From a virus, in IMG/VR virus record IMGVR_UViG_3300029822_001172, positions 1-22,155 of that record: 22,155 bases of DNA; one strand, 5' to 3'. The notes under the pieces are model-generated. The model did no database searches. It was not told where the DNA came from and saw only the letters and a program-made list of their open reading frames with translations. A program made the translations under genes and the position numbers. Shown here piece after piece: positions 1-15,504 of the stretch. Within the stretch, counting starts at the first letter, position 1; each line of letters starts with the position of its first letter.

Positions 1-1083
1 TACCATCCCGTAACCCGTCCAGGCAGGGTTCGAGCTATTAAGGGTAATTTTTGTGCCTGTGATTACGTTATCCTTTACATATAGGGTAGTTGGAGCCCCC
101 GCAGAAGTATACACGAGAAATCCGGCGTTATAGCAATCTTCTATAGTGTTTCTCTCGAAGGTCGCGCCGTTCCACCCACCAATGGCTATACCGGAATTAT
201 ACGCTATCGTGGTAATCCTGCCGGTTCCACGGATTATATTATCGTGAACGTGAAGCCCTTTGTTTGACTGGTTAGGTCCGGTTCCATACTCGATGATCCA
301 CATCCCTTCCCCCCATGCGTTCACAATCTCGTTTCCGTAGACCTCTATGTCTGACATATCGTAAGTATCGTCCCCATGCTCGATTTGTATCCCTGGATTG
401 CCTGCCAGGGAATTCAAGGCGTACGGTTCCATGTAGTTGTTGAATATTTTTCCATGTCCGGTATTATAGACTCTATGCGCTGAATTGGTTCTGATTAGCG
501 TTCTATTCCCAAAAATGAGGAAGTTCCGAGACCGTAAGAAGAAACAGCCATCGTGCCCCATCCTTTCCACTTTATTATTAAAAAAGTAAAGCGTGTCGCT
601 GTTGGACATTCGCATCCCGTCGCTTTGCCCATCATGAATATACATATCATGCATTGAAATATTTGTTGCATTTGTAAAAAACATTATAATGTAATTTAGT
701 TTTCCATGCACATAACCGGCTTGATTATCTTTATTTGCATCGATTTCGAAGTTGTGGACCTCGACATTTCTGATAGGGTTGACTCTCTGTTTCAAAAGAG
801 GTTCTGTGCCAGGGTCCTGGGTCGTGTAAATGTTAGCCCAGCCTGCATTATTCTTTAGCCTGAGTTTTGCGGTTTTGTCGCCTGTAAGGATGGTATTATT
901 CCCAACAAGCAACCAGGAAGTAAGCTCATAAGTAAAAGGTCCTCTCAGATAGACCGTTACTGGGTTGGCATCTGTCCCGGAATTATGAGCGTATAAAAGA
1001 GCCTGGTTAATCTGGATGTCGTCGGCTGTTCCGTCTACGGTGTATTCATCAGTTCCCAGGCTCGAAACGTAAACCGTAGTCAT
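1..1083 (-). CDS. Disaggregatase-like right-handed beta-helix protein (putative tailspike/depolymerase); 3' end outside the window
   Basis: Absent from the ORF track because there is no stop in the window. Manual translation gives 361 open codons: MTTVYVSSLGTDEYTVDGTADDIQINQALLYAH...VYLRGPFTYELTSWLLVGNNTILTGD...MHDMYIHDGQSDGMR...MGHDGCF...RTNSAHRV...GNPGIQIEH...DIEVYGNEI. The ATG overlaps the upstream TGA (ATGA at 1080-1083). Motifs recall Methanosarcina disaggregatase-related proteins. Confidence 0.85.
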   Translation of the reverse strand, partial: MTTVYVSSLGTDEYTVDGTADDIQINQALLYAHNSGTDANPVTVYLRGPFTYELTSWLLVGNNTILTGDKTAKLRLKNNAGWANIYTTQDPGTEPLLKQRVNPIRNVEVHNFEIDANKDNQAGYVHGKLNYIIMFFTNATNISMHDMYIHDGQSDGMRMSNSDTLYFFNNKVERMGHDGCFFLRSRNFLIFGNRTLIRTNSAHRVYNTGHGKIFNNYMEPYALNSLAGNPGIQIEHGDDTYDMSDIEVYGNEIVNAWGEGMWIIEYGTGPNQSNKGLHVHDNIIRGTGRITTIAYNSGIAIGGWNGATFERNTIEDCYNAGFLVYTSAGAPTTLYVKDNVITGTKITLNSSNPAWTGYGMV

Positions 1084-4000
1084 GCTAGGGACACCGTTAC
1101 TATTTTACCACTCGCTGTCTGCACTACAGCAGTTTTATTTTCCTCATTTATACTCAGGACCGTGCAACTTTCCGGAGTAAGCTGTTTTTCAAGTCTGTCC
1201 TCTACAATAGATTGTGTAGTATCGACCAGATCATCTATGATTGGTTTATAATATCCTGGACTTAGGAAGTCACTCCAAGGAGCAGGTACAATAGGATCAA
1301 TTACTGAATAGATGTTATCTGTAATTGCTGTGATGTTCACTATTTCCAGTTTATGCTCGCTAATATGCTTTATATCTGAAATCCTAAGCCATCTTGGACG
1401 GGGTACTCCTGAAACATCGACAAGATGTGTTGAGTTTTCGGCGTCCCTTGGATCATTAGCAGCAACAAATTTAACTTGTTGTGATTGTGTGAGCCCCTGC
1501 AGCTTATCAGAAAATTCAGGACCAAATCTAATACGCTGGTACAACTCAAAGTCGAACCGGTCCACAAAAGACATAGTAACCTTAACGCGTTTAGAAAGGA
1601 AATATAAAAGCCATTTTATGGCTTCACGCTCGGCTGTGCTGCCCTTTTCCGTGATCGCGTTATCTTCAATAATATATACTTTAGGTTTTTGTTCTCCTGT
1701 ATAGACCTCATAAGAAAATGCTTGAGCGACTACACTTTCCCCGTTCTCGCTAAGGACTCCATAAACTAGGACAGAGTTATATTTTTCCTCGCTTTCGTTT
1801 GTGACCTGGGGATCGCTGGCGAGCTTGCAGTCGTCGACGTTCAGCTCCAGAGGGGCAGGCAGATCAAACCCGTTAACTGGCTCGTCAATCCTTTCAGGTG
1901 GGACGAAATAAAATTCAGGTCGTATTATAGGGGTCCCGTCCATTTCCCTGGTTATTAGCCTGGTCTGATACAGGCATCCTGCGTATTTTGCAAGCTCCTT
2001 TATTGCCTCTAGTTTTTTGGTTTTAGGATCGAAAACAAACTGTTTAGGCTCTTTGTTAGTATCTATAAGCGTTTTAGGATACACCCCAGACTTTTCAGGC
2101 TCTAAAATCCTTACAAGCCAGTTAGGGACTGTATCCACTGCTGTATCAATTACCTGATATACCCAGGGGACTGGCTGAGTTACTAGGTTTATACTGTTAT
2201 CCGCCGCGTGCATTTTTACGGTTTGGGAATAATGTCCGTGAGTCGGCGAATTAGTTATTATTTTTCCATGGAATAATAAGCGAGGGTTGCCATGCGAGTC
2301 ATATGCATTATGTTTTATCGTGCTGCCTTCTGGAGGGACAGTAAGGTTTTGGAACTCTGTAGAGAGTTGAATGTAGGCGTCATTAATGGATCGATTGACT
2401 TCACAGGATACAATAGCATAATCGCCAAGCTCTCGACGCTCTTTAAAAGTTGGTTCCCCTGGGACCATTCCCATAAAAGACGAGGGTAACTTTATGTATT
2501 CATAATAAATTTGTGGAGTCTTCCACTGTGGGCGGTGGGAGAGCTGTATCTCTGGTATAATTTCGATACTTGTTTCGGTCGTGGTCTCGTAATATATCGC
2601 CCCTGTTTTCCTTGTCAGCTTTCCAAGAGTTCCAGATATATTGGTAATTTTCCGGACCCTGACCCAATCAACGACTAGATCACCTTTATTTGTGGTACTG
2701 TAAAACGAAATCGGGATAGATTCAGAAGGGGTTGTTACGGTCATGGTTCGACGGTAATTATCGTCTACAAAAAATCCAACACTTCCCAATTCGTAAGTTA
2801 TCCCGTATTTGTGGAATGTTGTACCGCCTCTATTTATCCCATCGTCTGTATTTGTAGAGGCAGAACCGTTATGCGTATGCGTATGATCGTTGTAATTTGT
2901 CCCCGACGCTCCTAACCAGCACGCCCTTTGGTTAGTTGCCGACCAGAAGCCGCAGATTGTTTGATTTTGGTTAGGATGGTACATTCTCATTTCTACTATA
3001 TGACCAGGACCAAACACCGTGGATCCTCGGATTAAACTATTCTGTACCGTACTCCCTAAAATCATAGTTGAGTTGGTAACTGAGGCTACCCCTCCTGCTA
3101 GAGTCCATTCAGGTCCAAGAGTAGAACCTTCGAAATCATCCCAAATGTCGAAAACATCAGATGCGGAACTCTCAGAAGCAGCTAGACCATTCCCGAAAAA
3201 GAACAATATCTTATCATGATCTTTAGGGAGCTTAACCCATACAGAAAACTCGGTCGATGTTGTGGTCTCCAGATAGTAAGATAACTTATTCCCTGCCAGG
3301 TCATAAAATCTTAAATCTCTGCCGTCTGCTGTCATGCCTGGACGGTATGGAATAGAGAGGAGGATCTGCTCGCCTCCGGTAGCCGAGGAAGTCGCCGAGA
3401 GGTTAACGTCCTGCTGATATTTCCAGCCTGGAAGCTGCCAGACCCCGCCCCCGCCTCCTATGTTAGGGGTTACGGTTACGGTCGTCTCTGTCTGTGGGAC
3501 TCCGACTATAGAGGGGTCGCTCTTTGTTTTAGCGACCCCGTTACCGTAATAAAATTTTATCCGGGTGGTCCCTGCAGGGATCTCGACCCAGCAGTCCAGG
3601 AAGTCGAGCCCAGTATCAAAGATGTTAAATTTTAGCTCTTTATCGTCGAGATCTGTATATCTCAGGTCTCGACCGTCGAGGGTCATGCCTGGCTGAATAG
3701 GGAGCTTAACCCGTGCCGGGCTCTCCTGATCCCCGAGATATATTTCTCCCCGGTACTTCCAGAGAGGATAAGGACTTCTGAGCTGTGGATTATAAAAAAG
3801 CGGGCGCCTAAACATGACGTTAGCTTTCATCCCCAACTGAGTATTAATATTTTTTAAAAATGACTTTATATTTACGGATGGATACATTCCAATCCTGGTA
3901 TTTGCTTCTGTAATTGCATTATCCCAAGGGTAGCCCTTTGGCTGAGTTGTATATTTTCTTCCTGTTGTAAGGACTGGCATCGTTTCCGTAAAGTCCCTGA

Positions 4001-4787
4001 CCCTAACCCAATCTACCCTAAGATCTCCTTTATTTACTTCCGAATAAAAGGAAACTGGCAGCGATACATTACCTGGTAGTGTTTCCGCTAAATATGTCCT
4101 TTCAGAATAATTCACAAAAAAGCGGGCCTGAGAAATTGAATTAGCTGCGGCATATACATAATAAGCGCCTGCCCTGTTTACTCCGTCATCTCTCCACGTT
4201 CCAGAACTTCCGTTATGCGTAAATCTATGATCGTTGTTTACTGCCTGAGTAGAACCCTGCCAAGCTACTGTTTTTTGAGTGCTTGTATTCCTGAAGCCTA
4301 TAATACATCTGTTTTTATCTGCATGAGAAGCCCTGGCTTCTACTATTGTATTAGGTGCGAAGGTTTTGTATGTTTCTAAAATACAATTCAGTGAAGCGTT
4401 TTGCATTGTAAGAATTGAACCGGATACCGTCGCTGAACCATGAATGAGTTTCCAAATTGAATTATCAAGTTTATCGAAATGGTCAAAAAACGTAAATACG
4501 CCCTTACCATCGCTTTTAGAAGTTACTCCACCATTTCCATAATGTAAGTAAAATAAATCAGTATTGGGAGGAAGTCTAAACCAGATAAAAACCTGGTTAA
4601 ACTCCGTTACTGATTCTATAAAATATGGGATTTCGGTTCCGGATCTAGTAGAGGCTCTTATATCCCTGAAATCCGCCCTCATCCCTGGACGATAGAGCAA
4701 GGCGATGTTAGCCAGGAAATCCTTAGTCGTCGAAAATCCCGTGACATGGACTTCTAGCTTATACTTCCAAGCGATGAAATGCTGCAC
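1080..4787 (-). CDS. Tail tip/baseplate hub protein with three N-terminal DUF2341-like adhesin modules
   Basis: 1235 aa, GTG start. Three repeats of WKY...PGM..D.RD.R...W(V/F)...YGNG; repeats 1 and 3 continue into a lectin-like beta-sandwich ending DWVRVR. The C-terminal ~500 aa is hub-like by position and pattern. Confidence 0.8.
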   Translation of the reverse strand: MQHFIAWKYKLEVHVTGFSTTKDFLANIALLYRPGMRADFRDIRASTRSGTEIPYFIESVTEFNQVFIWFRLPPNTDLFYLHYGNGGVTSKSDGKGVFTFFDHFDKLDNSIWKLIHGSATVSGSILTMQNASLNCILETYKTFAPNTIVEARASHADKNRCIIGFRNTSTQKTVAWQGSTQAVNNDHRFTHNGSSGTWRDDGVNRAGAYYVYAAANSISQARFFVNYSERTYLAETLPGNVSLPVSFYSEVNKGDLRVDWVRVRDFTETMPVLTTGRKYTTQPKGYPWDNAITEANTRIGMYPSVNIKSFLKNINTQLGMKANVMFRRPLFYNPQLRSPYPLWKYRGEIYLGDQESPARVKLPIQPGMTLDGRDLRYTDLDDKELKFNIFDTGLDFLDCWVEIPAGTTRIKFYYGNGVAKTKSDPSIVGVPQTETTVTVTPNIGGGGGVWQLPGWKYQQDVNLSATSSATGGEQILLSIPYRPGMTADGRDLRFYDLAGNKLSYYLETTTSTEFSVWVKLPKDHDKILFFFGNGLAASESSASDVFDIWDDFEGSTLGPEWTLAGGVASVTNSTMILGSTVQNSLIRGSTVFGPGHIVEMRMYHPNQNQTICGFWSATNQRACWLGASGTNYNDHTHTHNGSASTNTDDGINRGGTTFHKYGITYELGSVGFFVDDNYRRTMTVTTPSESIPISFYSTTNKGDLVVDWVRVRKITNISGTLGKLTRKTGAIYYETTTETSIEIIPEIQLSHRPQWKTPQIYYEYIKLPSSFMGMVPGEPTFKERRELGDYAIVSCEVNRSINDAYIQLSTEFQNLTVPPEGSTIKHNAYDSHGNPRLLFHGKIITNSPTHGHYSQTVKMHAADNSINLVTQPVPWVYQVIDTAVDTVPNWLVRILEPEKSGVYPKTLIDTNKEPKQFVFDPKTKKLEAIKELAKYAGCLYQTRLITREMDGTPIIRPEFYFVPPERIDEPVNGFDLPAPLELNVDDCKLASDPQVTNESEEKYNSVLVYGVLSENGESVVAQAFSYEVYTGEQKPKVYIIEDNAITEKGSTAEREAIKWLLYFLSKRVKVTMSFVDRFDFELYQRIRFGPEFSDKLQGLTQSQQVKFVAANDPRDAENSTHLVDVSGVPRPRWLRISDIKHISEHKLEIVNITAITDNIYSVIDPIVPAPWSDFLSPGYYKPIIDDLVDTTQSIVEDRLEKQLTPESCTVLSINEENKTAVVQTASGKIVTVSLA

Positions 4788-4802
4788 ATTTCCACCCTAT
4801 CA

Positions 4803-5195
4803 TTAAGGTTTCTGCACAATTGCCCAGAGTGAACAGCCTGTTATTGCCTGCCCAGTGTCCAGGTTTACCACTCTAGCCCTTACATAACGGGCGGCTCTCT
4901 GCATCTGCACGAAGCCCTGGACCTGATGGCCTGCGTCTACCTGCACGTCCCCTGAGTCGCAGGGATCGGCATAAGTCCCGATGGTGAAACTTTGTGAAGC
5001 TCCTGCAGGATCTGCATAGAGGTCTATTCTTGCGCCCTTTGTTGCGCTTGCGTGAAACATCATTTGGTATCCAATGCCGAAGTCAACCGCATCGTTCAGG
5101 TCCACGCCTGTACTTGCGGCACTTGCGCTGTTTGCCGCTACGGTTACGCTGTCAAGTATAAGAGTTGGTGTTTTCGAAAGTGCCATATTTATCAC
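4803..5195 (-). CDS. Hypothetical virion protein (beta-rich, jelly-roll-like)
   Basis: 130 aa ORF with AGGTGA RBS, tightly packed in the tail operon; ARYVRARVVN strand motif. Confidence 0.6.
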   Translation of the reverse strand: MINMALSKTPTLILDSVTVAANSASAASTGVDLNDAVDFGIGYQMMFHASATKGARIDLYADPAGASQSFTIGTYADPCDSGDVQVDAGHQVQGFVQMQRAARYVRARVVNLDTGQAITGCSLWAIVQKP

Positions 5196-5196
5196 C

Positions 5197-5793
5197 TCAT
5201 TCCGGTACTACTGTACCAATTCCTTGTATAAGCTGTGATCTAATAGCGTCTTCTGGTGTTGAAATTCTGTTATTATATGCCGTGATTAGCTTGTCCCGGC
5301 ATGAATCAAGACCCGCGTTTCTATTCCATGTGATTTTCACATTTCTTGCTTGGGATCTGTCCTGATCTTTTCCAAGAACAGCAGCCGATACTTCGCATAT
5401 ATCAGCACTTATAATCCTAACGTCTATTGAATCTGCAATGATGATTTCGTCTTTGTTGACTCCTATTTTCTCGACCTTCTCGTATCCCGCAGGATCGCCA
5501 GAGAAAATAACCTCCGGGATAGTTACGAGGCCCATGCCGTAAAGAACCAGCGCCCTATAAGCGATCTTCTCGGCTTCTTTCCTAAAGTAGTCGATAGCCT
5601 CTTCCTTTGCCAGAATTAGAGCATTATTTAAGGCTTCCATAGTCTGAGCTTTAGGAATTACTATAAAGTCTCTCTGTGGGTTGCTGCCGTCTGCGTAGGT
5701 ATTAGCAGTATCCTTCAGAACAATGTGGATAGCACCGTCATCATCCACGGTATAAGGGGGATCGTCGACAGGAACGATATTAAGCGTGACCAT
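5197..5793 (-). CDS. Hypothetical protein in the tail module
   Basis: 198 aa ORF, co-oriented and tightly packed, preceded by AAGGAG. Confidence 0.6.
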   Translation of the reverse strand: MVTLNIVPVDDPPYTVDDDGAIHIVLKDTANTYADGSNPQRDFIVIPKAQTMEALNNALILAKEEAIDYFRKEAEKIAYRALVLYGMGLVTIPEVIFSGDPAGYEKVEKIGVNKDEIIIADSIDVRIISADICEVSAAVLGKDQDRSQARNVKITWNRNAGLDSCRDKLITAYNNRISTPEDAIRSQLIQGIGTVVPE

Positions 5794-5806
5794 TTTCCAG
5801 AGCTCC

Positions 5807-6193
5807 TTAGATGGATGTTACCCTTGTATTTGTGTTCGTAATCGTGATCTCGACGCTCTCACCGTCGGAATAGTTTTTATTTTCCGAGAGCACATGCCTT
5901 AAGAACATGTCACCGCCTACGGAAGCGTTGAATATCCCCAGTTCTCGAATAGTCACAGGGCCTGTAAACGCATACAATATAGACCACTGTGAAATCCCAA
6001 GACTGACATAAGATACGGTCGCCTGCGCCCTCTGTGCTCCGTACTGTGTATTTTCGTTCTCAAGTGCGGTACTTGCTGTACTCTCTGCCCCCGCTCCTGT
6101 GCCTGTAGCCATATAGACAAAAGGATCAGGAGGGGACGCCCCTATAATCATTCTTGCAGCTGCTTCAAGGGCTTTATCTGTTAGCGTCGCGAT
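5807..6193 (-). CDS. Small tail/baseplate structural protein; start is either ATC at 6193 or ATG at 6151
   Basis: FVYMATGTG...TALENE...IRELGIFNASVGGDMFLR pattern typical of archaeal-virus tail proteins. The frame is open upstream of the ATG (IATLTDKALEAAARM). A strong RBS GAGGAGGT lies 6 nt before the ATC. Confidence 0.65.
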   Translation of the reverse strand: MATLTDKALEAAARMIIGASPPDPFVYMATGTGAGAESTASTALENENTQYGAQRAQATVSYVSLGISQWSILYAFTGPVTIRELGIFNASVGGDMFLRHVLSENKNYSDGESVEITITNTNTRVTSI

Positions 6194-6309
6194 ACTAAGA
6201 CCTCCTCTTTTCCATCTGAATGTATCCTGATATGCTCGGTTATGTTGCCCTCGCGGTCCCTAGATTTGATATCAATGACCGTAAGGGACGCTGTTTCTGT
6301 TGCTGTCAA
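6181..6309 (-). CDS. 42-aa ORF (MTATETASLTVIDIKSRDREGNITEHIRIHSDGKEEVLVSRR)
   Basis: The TTG start overlaps the stop of the upstream gene (TTGA) and the ORF overlaps the downstream gene. It resembles the missing N-terminus of that downstream protein family. Confidence 0.5.
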   Translation of the reverse strand: MTATETASLTVIDIKSRDREGNITEHIRIHSDGKEEVLVSRR

Positions 6310-6653
6310 TGTTGATCGACCTTTGAAAATTTTATATTGTATACGAATTTTCCGGATCCCCGGACAACTTCCTTGATTCCACCAACCCCCGAAATATAAC
6401 AGTCTGGAAAACTTTCACCTTCTATAACCAGAGTGCCGAATGTGCCGATGGCGTCCGCTAGATTGGAGATCTCGGTATAATCCTCTGTATAGCAGTCGAA
6501 AGAGCGGGGGAAATCTCGTTTTTTGTTGCTTATAGCAGCGAAAAAATCGCCGTTATAAAGCTGCACTTCCTTCGCTGTTACCGTGAAATTTTTTTCAGTG
6601 TCTTGATAAGCAGTTACCGGAAGCCCTGCGAAAGTCACTGATAAAAAGCTCAT
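6306..6653 (-). CDS. Putative distal tail (Dit-like) protein
   Basis: 115 aa immediately after the tape measure with ATGA overlap; beta-rich; assignment mainly positional. Confidence 0.6.
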   Translation of the reverse strand: MSFLSVTFAGLPVTAYQDTEKNFTVTAKEVQLYNGDFFAAISNKKRDFPRSFDCYTEDYTEISNLADAIGTFGTLVIEGESFPDCYISGVGGIKEVVRGSGKFVYNIKFSKVDQH

Positions 6654-14518: not shown

Positions 14519-15504
14519 GCTCCGGTTTTAGGATTATATGCGCCTGTGCAGGCTTTGTTTTCGGTCTGTACGTTTCCGGCTGGATACTGTACGCCAGAAG
14601 CTCCGAGTTTTACACCACCCAGATCTTCAGCGAGTTTGTTAAGATCGGCTGCGGTAAGTGTCTTAAAATCTTCGGCTTTTGTCTCAATGCCTAGTTTTTC
14701 CCTGGCACTTGCGAAGGCTGAGAATGCTGTTTCTCTTTCGTTTGCCTTCTGAACTTCCTGCTTATATTCTTCCAGAGCAGAAGCGACAAGTTTCTGAGCT
14801 TCTTCGAGAGTCAGAGAAGAGGCTTTTCCCTTTTCAAGAGAAGCAACGAGAGTATTCTTTTCCTCAAGTTTTCCCTTCAGATCTTCGATAGAAGCTGTCA
14901 GTTCTCCGACTTTTGCCTCAAGCTCTGGGACGGATGCGGCCACCGGCTTGAGTTCTTCAATAATTTTATCTTTTTCTTCAAGCTCAACTTTGAGCTTTTC
15001 GAGTTCTTCTGTTATGGTTTCACCTTCTTCTTGTGATGATGCGATTAACGTAAATTGTGAAAGCGTCCTAAAACGAGAATTCCCATTTTCTGATGCTGTA
15101 ATCTCCCAAGCCGCTTGACTCCACGCGGGATTCCTCACAAGAGTCATAGACCGCGCTTCTATTCCAGTTGCCCATCCTTCAGAATCAATGTTAGAAGCCT
15201 GGACGTAAGTAGACCAGTTTTTTTCCCATGTCCCATCTGCGATTTTCTGAGCGGCTATTGAATCAGTTATCCGCCCTTTTGCTCTGATAACATCACCTTC
15301 ACGCCAAGCGGCAACAATGCGCCCAACTTCTGCGCGGGGATCTTCGGAAAAATCGCAATCGTGTGGATCATCACGCGGGCATATTCGGATAACAGAGGCT
15401 TTTAAGGAGTTGATAGCGTTATCTGCTTCTGATGCGGGTATGCCCCACCCGTTAGCATTTTTTTGATTGAGAGGGAAAGCGAGTCCCTCGATAAAAAGAG
15501 TCAT
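14509..15504 (-). CDS. Prohead protease-scaffold fusion
   Basis: N-terminal domain with IEGLAFP, H...VGRI and SMTLVRNPAW motifs, followed by a long acidic coiled coil. Confidence 0.8.
   Translation of the reverse strand: MTLFIEGLAFPLNQKNANGWGIPASEADNAINSLKASVIRICPRDDPHDCDFSEDPRAEVGRIVAAWREGDVIRAKGRITDSIAAQKIADGTWEKNWSTYVQASNIDSEGWATGIEARSMTLVRNPAWSQAAWEITASENGNSRFRTLSQFTLIASSQEEGETITEELEKLKVELEEKDKIIEELKPVAASVPELEAKVGELTASIEDLKGKLEEKNTLVASLEKGKASSLTLEEAQKLVASALEEYKQEVQKANERETAFSAFASAREKLGIETKAEDFKTLTAADLNKLAEDLGGVKLGASGVQYPAGNVQTENKACTGAYNPKTGAWE

Follow-up and report, generated by a model that had tools for sequence, protein, structure and literature searches.

A leaderless disaggregatase-related protein encoded at the end of the tail operon of a Methanosarcina virus is a candidate tail-tip enzyme for cutting the host matrix

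The tail operon of a Methanosarcina virus closes with the gene of a disaggregatase-related protein, which we name V1 and which, in the reading we hold with moderate confidence, acts on the tail tip to cut the extracellular polysaccharide of the host, most likely methanochondroitin. Lacking a leader, V1 would be synthesised in the cytoplasm, in translational coupling with the tail hub, and would be mounted on the tail tip; there it would cleave what is most likely the uronic-acid polymer methanochondroitin, and this cutting of the matrix would open a way for the tail to the S-layer of cells inside aggregates. Aggregates are known to shield M. mazei from the virus MetSV (PMC12369344, PMC13437554).

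The window analysed here spans an entire IMG/VR record (22,155 bases) that is catalogued as a provirus, with an estimated completeness of 33%, and V1 is the protein encoded at its very start on the minus strand (Table 1). The open frame begins with the ATG at 1083 and continues for 361 residues up to base 1 of the record without meeting a stop. Nine related loci (82-96% identical) were found in IMG/VR, and eight of them reach far enough for the whole gene, which encodes 495 residues in seven loci and 499 in one; a 96%-identical full-length orthologue lies at L002:10001-11485. What the window shows as V1 is thus not a short gene but one truncated at the record end. The part absent from the window is the C-terminal third, which holds the final rungs of the helix, the linker and the small beta domain at the C-terminus. 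The hub protein of the window also appears on a longer contig (31,465 bases), from which it follows that the 22,155-base record was trimmed and a viral gene cut in half. The trimming was probably done by a provirus-border caller, which the host-like look of V1 may have misled. Comparison with six relatives gave a dN/dS of 0.05-0.08 for V1, showing it to be a genuine gene that is strongly constrained by purifying selection.

Table 1. Features of the window and of related viral loci. Positions without a prefix are those of the window; prefixed positions refer to related or other viral loci.
Feature	Position	Strand	Basis or detail
V1, 5' fragment (residues 1-361 of ~495), leaderless beta-helix protein, disaggregatase-related	1..1083	-	ORF; Pfam PF08480/PF13229/NosD; orthologues
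Three consecutive helix rungs of V1 with D155, H177, D178, R198, N200 and R204; presumed active site	472..621	-	conservation; translation check
ATGA start/stop overlap, hub gene/V1	1080..1083	-	sequence; kept in 9/9 related loci
Tail hub protein, 1235 aa	1080..4787	-	N-terminal two thirds DUF2341 x3 + lectin-like repeats; C-terminal third hub
Hub-fold region, residues 740-1235	1083..2570	-	AF2 + Foldseek
Four small genes (130, 198, 114, 115 aa) between tape measure and hub, presumed distal tail parts	4803..6653	-	ORFs; weak family matches
Tail tape measure protein, 1017 aa	6650..9703	-	PHROG tape-measure families, E down to 3e-76
Protospacer	1619..1655	.	36/37 match, spacer of Methanosarcina genome G058
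Protospacer	2665..2700	.	34/36 match, spacer of Methanosarcina genome G007
Protospacer	3314..3349	.	36/36 match, spacer of Methanosarcina genome G058
Protospacer	5195..5228	.	34/34 match, spacer of Methanosarcina genome G007
Protospacer	14638..14673	.	36/36 match, spacer of Methanosarcina genome G058
Giant proteins headed by a V1-type module	L036:6001-10815; L062:5001-9878		
Second disaggregatase-related paralogue	L002:13500-14927; L006:12406-13719; L011:14407-15816		
tRNA-Gln (anticodon TTG)	L002:15710-15782; L006:15960-16037; L009:15450-15522		

The junction between the hub gene and V1 reads ...GTG TCC CTA GCA TGA / ATG ACT ACG on the minus strand, with the TGA and the ATG sharing two bases, and a GGTG lies 8 nt upstream of the V1 ATG. 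Both the overlap and the GGTG are kept in 9/9 related loci, which bears out the ATGA coupling to the hub gene that an earlier note had read from the window's letters. The same note had stated that V1 has no signal peptide, and this also held: none was found at the N-terminus (MTTVYVSSLGTDEYTVDG), which contains no hydrophobic stretch and enters the beta-helix at residue 1-3.

The minus strand of the window carries a siphovirus-type late operon, in which scaffold-like and capsid genes, Neck1, a tail terminator, the major tail protein, the tape measure and four small genes, presumed from their position to encode distal tail parts, are followed by the hub and V1. In the relatives examined, the gene block after V1 lies on the opposite strand; V1 therefore closes the structural operon. 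The 1235-residue protein encoded upstream of V1 is, by its predicted fold, a tail hub of the Mu gp44, gp27 and VgrG type, in agreement with what had been proposed for it. Its residues 740-1235 were folded with AF2 from 32 homologues (pLDDT 78.8), and a Foldseek search with the model matched the phage Mu baseplate (9ki1_G, E 6.5e-14) as well as the MuSo2 43-kDa tail protein (3cdd), the tail of the archaeal virus HFTV1 (9h4p_BD), a baseplate chain of 80alpha (6v8i), T4 gp27 and VgrG. The order of domains in this protein is the reverse of that usual in tail-associated hub proteins, the hub module (approximately residues 790-1235) standing at the C-terminus after three DUF2341 domains and two lectin-like repeats. 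A conserved protein of about 710 residues, found in most Methanosarcina genomes, shares 38-45% identity with its DUF2341 domain.

The tape measure, the hub fold and the ATGA coupling place V1 where tailspikes are encoded, in a tail module beside hub and baseplate genes. An N-terminal particle-binding domain was not found in V1, in which the helix starts at once and the only extra domain is C-terminal. The earlier designation of V1 as a tailspike is thus plausible by gene order and by the fusion forms seen elsewhere, but finds no counterpart in an N-terminal anchoring domain. Compared with phage tailspikes and depolymerases (the P22, Sf6 and HK620 tailspikes, the K5A lyase and phi29 gp12), V1 belongs to a different sequence family, lacks the N-terminal adaptor domain, is highly conserved among related viruses instead of hypervariable, and has an archaeal host.

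The fusion forms come from two other viral lineages, where a protein of 1604 or 1625 residues, encoded directly after the tape measure, is headed by the same leaderless beta-helix module. As a gene-fusion argument, these giant proteins suggest that the V1-type module is located at the tail tip. The idea that they simply represent V1 fused to the hub of the window was rejected when BLASTP of the 1604-residue protein against the hub gave results no better than chance. Just downstream of the giant protein in L036 are encoded a protein with Mtd_N and DUF2341 and another with GH16-like and PKD domains.

Each of the eight relatives long enough to include the region carries a second PF08480 paralogue; it has about 400-485 residues, is 30% identical, lies 2-6 kb downstream of V1, and often has a DUF1699 gene in front of it. 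These paralogues form a clade of their own (support 0.992), and the window ends before the region in which they would be expected. In L006 and L011, a protein of 140-184 residues and small proteins predicted to contain membrane segments come after the second paralogue, a gene content that makes this region a possible exit cassette. The second paralogue may therefore serve the exit of the virus from the cell and, because of the small putative membrane proteins that follow it in some relatives, it is a better candidate for such a role than V1.

An exit function for V1 itself is the alternative that survives best, although we regard it as unlikely. V1 would then be a soluble late enzyme that is off the particle, stays in the cytoplasm until it is freed at lysis, and dissolves the matrix so that progeny escape the aggregate. 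A protein with neither leader nor recognisable N-terminal anchor would suit this role, and the last position in the late operon fits a lysis enzyme; the conserved translational coupling of hub and V1, the fusion of the domain to giant proteins in tail position in two other lineages, and the separate second paralogue as the better exit candidate all argue for V1 on the particle. A soluble enzyme would also have a precedent in PeiP and PeiW, which act in lysis. These pseudomurein endoisopeptidases of the viruses psiM1/psiM2 and psiM100 are wall-degrading enzymes (PMC4592898), and they likewise are enzymes of methanogen viruses that degrade the special wall polymer of the host. They differ from V1 in being peptidases that act on pseudomurein in Methanobacteriales, and both their fold and their substrate are unrelated to those of V1.

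V1 belongs to the disaggregatase-related family, as had been proposed. In a Pfam profile search the V1 fragment matched Disaggr_assoc (PF08480) with 53.8 bits against a cut-off of 22.6, with additional matches to PF13229 (Beta_helix) and NosD, and the full-length orthologue P0010, which is 96% identical to V1, scored 57.9 bits with PF08480. The viral proteins score 54-58 bits, whereas the cellular copies in one Methanosarcina genome reach 215-263 bits. Residues 4-361 of V1 align with residues 35-384 of a 1110-residue ORF from a 4.14-Mb Methanosarcina genome (35% identity, 57% positives, E 3e-66) that combines a beta-helix, PF08480 and three PF06848 (DNRLRE) repeats, which we take to be the architecture of disaggregatase (Dag). 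The motifs noticed in the window, namely VYLRGPFTY, MHDMYIHDGQSDGMR, GHDG, RTNSAHR and GNPGIQIE, are all present, and each of them aligns with its counterpart in this cellular protein. Whether the best matches might instead be to unrelated pectate-lyase-like families had been raised as a check, and it came out in favour of the disaggregatase reading. A megablast search of window 1-4800 against GenBank phages found no match, tblastn of a full-length V1 orthologue against 50,697 GenBank phage records found none either, and no PHROG family matches V1.

Homologues of V1 residues 3-393 occur in 59/59 Methanosarcina species genomes, with 2-21 copies per genome at 34-43% identity; PF08480 itself is present in 59/59 Methanosarcina genomes and in 41/225 other genomes of the order. 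V1 is 36% identical to the Dag-type protein and up to 40-43% identical to other cellular paralogues. By these identities, disaggregatase is not a nearer relative of V1 than are hundreds of uncharacterised paralogues of the host in the 34-43% range. DNRLRE repeats (PF06848), of which the Dag-type cellular protein has three, were not found in P0010. With Dag and the cellular disaggregatase-related proteins, V1 shares an enzymatic module of about 390 residues (beta-helix and Disaggr_assoc), the motifs and the conserved polar residues, but it is without their signal peptide, DNRLRE repeats, CBM96 and Ig domains, and it adds a small C-terminal beta domain of its own, a viral tail operon and a separate clade. 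The profile score above cut-off, the collinear alignment and the conserved polar residues place V1 in the family, whereas the lack of the repeats and of a secretion signal, and the fact that Dag is not its closest relative, speak against V1 being a Dag orthologue. The family is moreover plentiful in M. acetivorans, a species generally without methanochondroitin (review PMC12369344), so the family is not tied to this polymer. The identification of V1 as a methanochondroitin depolymerase was therefore not supported, V1 being not specifically related to Dag, devoid of DNRLRE repeats and part of a family that abounds in M. acetivorans; methanochondroitin is nevertheless a plausible substrate.

The fold of V1 was modelled with AF2 on P0010, using an alignment of 51 rows (pLDDT 86.7). 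The model consists of a beta-helix at residues 1-392 (pLDDT >90), a disordered linker at 393-419 and a beta domain at 428-494, and its helix is predicted to be right-handed and parallel, the fold of tailspikes and depolymerases and also that of the AlgE A-module. Six polar residues on three consecutive rungs form the presumed active site, and their conservation among 188 family members is 93% for D155, 94% for H177, 91% for D/E178, 80% for R198, 82% for N200 and 95% for R204; all six are retained in the window V1, in both viral paralogue clades and in cellular proteins. We know of no experimental definition of the catalytic residues of disaggregatase. The conserved polar rungs of V1 align with the active-site rungs of AlgE6 and AlgE4, and the family profile matches AlgE6 by sequence (E 1.5e-10); a PDB sequence search with the single V1 protein gave no match, so that AlgE was reached by the family profile only. 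The catalytic motif of AlgE4 is reportedly YG(F/I)DPH(D/E), with Tyr149, Asp152 and His154. This motif is absent from V1, where the profile alignment sets the family consensus 'lgDglrikr' (SDGMRMS in the window) opposite to it, and D178 is the only V1 counterpart of an AlgE catalytic residue. V1 thus differs from the A-modules of the AlgE4 and AlgE6 mannuronan C-5 epimerases and from alginate epimerase/lyases in lacking the motif, and it also lacks their Ca-binding R-modules. The best fold and profile matches of the module act on polyuronates, with beta-helix adhesins such as PfbA nearly equal to them in fold score. The module is thus built like polyuronate-acting enzymes and may work by hydrolysis or by elimination.

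For the C-terminal beta domain, no Pfam family and no PHROG family was found, and the protein-atlas score of 0.84 is below the meaningful level. The domain occurs only in the V1 protein type, where it may act as an anchor, a trimeriser or a sugar-binding module. A metagenomic protein of 513 residues (P0018) carries the V1-type small beta domain at its N-terminus (residues 4-70), before the beta-helix; from this arrangement the domain appears to have been shuffled, as a movable adaptor would be.

A second alternative, which we consider quite unlikely, leaves V1 on the tail but has it act on another glycan, such as S-layer N-glycans or a different exopolysaccharide, or makes it a non-catalytic receptor-binding protein. 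Just one of the Methanosarcina paralogues of the family has ever been characterised (review PMC12369344), and this, together with the 2-21 copies per genome, the presence of the family in M. acetivorans, described as without methanochondroitin (PMC12369344), and a viral clade that is not nearest to the Dag type, leaves scope for a different substrate. The near-equal fold scores of adhesins would fit a protein that only binds, but the set of acidic, basic and histidine residues is kept under strong purifying selection, which argues for catalysis. Polyuronates are the substrates of the closest matches by fold and by profile, and methanochondroitin contains uronic acid (review PMC12369344), which again favours our reading of V1 as a tail-tip enzyme that cuts this matrix.

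The age of the viral type was examined in a FastTree phylogeny (LG model, rooted at the midpoint) of 188 domain sequences that sampled 16 chromosomal Methanosarcina copies. The viral V1 orthologues fall into a 52-member clade (support 0.988) that contains 0/16 of these chromosomal copies. Within the clade, 38/42 called proteins begin the domain at residue 1 and have no hydrophobic leader, whereas 64/113 proteins outside it have a leader of 11-80 residues, strongly hydrophobic in 60 of these 64. Most members of the clade carry no taxon label and the midpoint root is not secured, which limits the claim to the viral type being old and distinct. Because V1 is only 34-43% identical to all cellular paralogues and sits in a separate, mostly leaderless clade, the viral type appears to be old and distinct from the cellular copies, and not a recent capture. 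The proposal that the virus captured a host enzyme was thus not supported as worded by the phylogeny against host paralogues; a capture is plausible, but any such event would be old and may have run in either direction.

Searching the window DNA against 59 Methanosarcina species genomes produced short near-perfect matches clustered in two complete genomes (3.13 and 3.28 Mb), and the four regions inspected in these are CRISPR arrays with a 37-nt repeat. Five near-perfect spacer matches in two Methanosarcina genomes identify the host as Methanosarcina, and with the siphovirus-type tail module they confirm that V1 is the gene of a virus with this host. Three of the five protospacers lie inside the hub gene. 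A Methanosarcina MAG contains a V1 orthologue with 78% identity, on a contig of 60 kb that looks viral throughout. It is scarcely credible that V1 is instead a host gene left at a badly trimmed provirus border, as its position at the very edge of a trimmed 'provirus' record (against the 31,465-base contig) and the abundance of the family in host chromosomes might suggest, because this is contradicted by synteny in related viral contigs of 35-60 kb, in which V1 and the ATGA junction lie internally and further viral genes, RecT and MCM among them, come after, and also by the separation of the V1 clade from the sampled chromosomal copies.

How archaeal viruses pass the cell envelope is largely unknown, and the question whether more archaeal virions carry enzymes was posed in a 2024 review (PMC10791045). 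Aggregates embedded in methanochondroitin resist MetSV, the one well-studied Methanosarcina virus, and are an obstacle for genetics and for digesters. If our reading of V1 is true, the arms race between capsule and depolymerase would have a counterpart in archaea; V1 would also give mechanistic work a compact disaggregatase-family protein that has no leader, with an enzyme module of about 390 residues, and possibly provide a tool for dispersing aggregates. More tentatively, and without expecting every part of it to hold, we suggest that Methanosarcina tailed viruses bear at the tail tip a matrix-cutting enzyme specific to archaea, and that many of them have a second paralogue for exit; that the methanochondroitin coat, thickened under viral attack, is fought over by virus and host much as bacterial capsules are; and that the whole AlgE-like disaggregatase family uses lyase- or epimerase-type chemistry on uronic acids and not hydrolysis. 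On this tentative view, no enzymatically armed tail would have been described before for a tailed virus of archaea. The AlgE-like fold would in any case offer a concrete, testable idea of the chemistry of the family. In the literature searched, we found no published link between disaggregatase and a virus gene, the nearest being the review of the Methanosarcina surface and a preprint on a plasmid-borne copy.

Three further observations concern the relation of these viruses to Methanosarcina genomes. Two stretches of the V1 gene, 997-1035 and 608-651 (coding DGTADDIQINQAL and MHDMYIHDGQSDG), have 82-87% DNA identity to chromosomal paralogues in many Methanosarcina genomes; the proteins containing them are only about 36% identical overall to these paralogues. 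Some relatives of the window encode a tRNA-Gln, which was considered as an integration site or host marker and dropped, being just 77-85% identical to Methanosarcina tRNAs; judged by this divergence, it is probably a gene of the virus and not an attachment site. Finally, a region of a 5.8-Mb Methanosarcina genome (G002:C1:4683156-4694559) contains, within 12 kb, a stretch distantly related to the hub C-terminus (28% identity), a stretch of DUF2341 (50%) and DNA matching the major-tail-protein region (63%), and is probably a remote integrated provirus.
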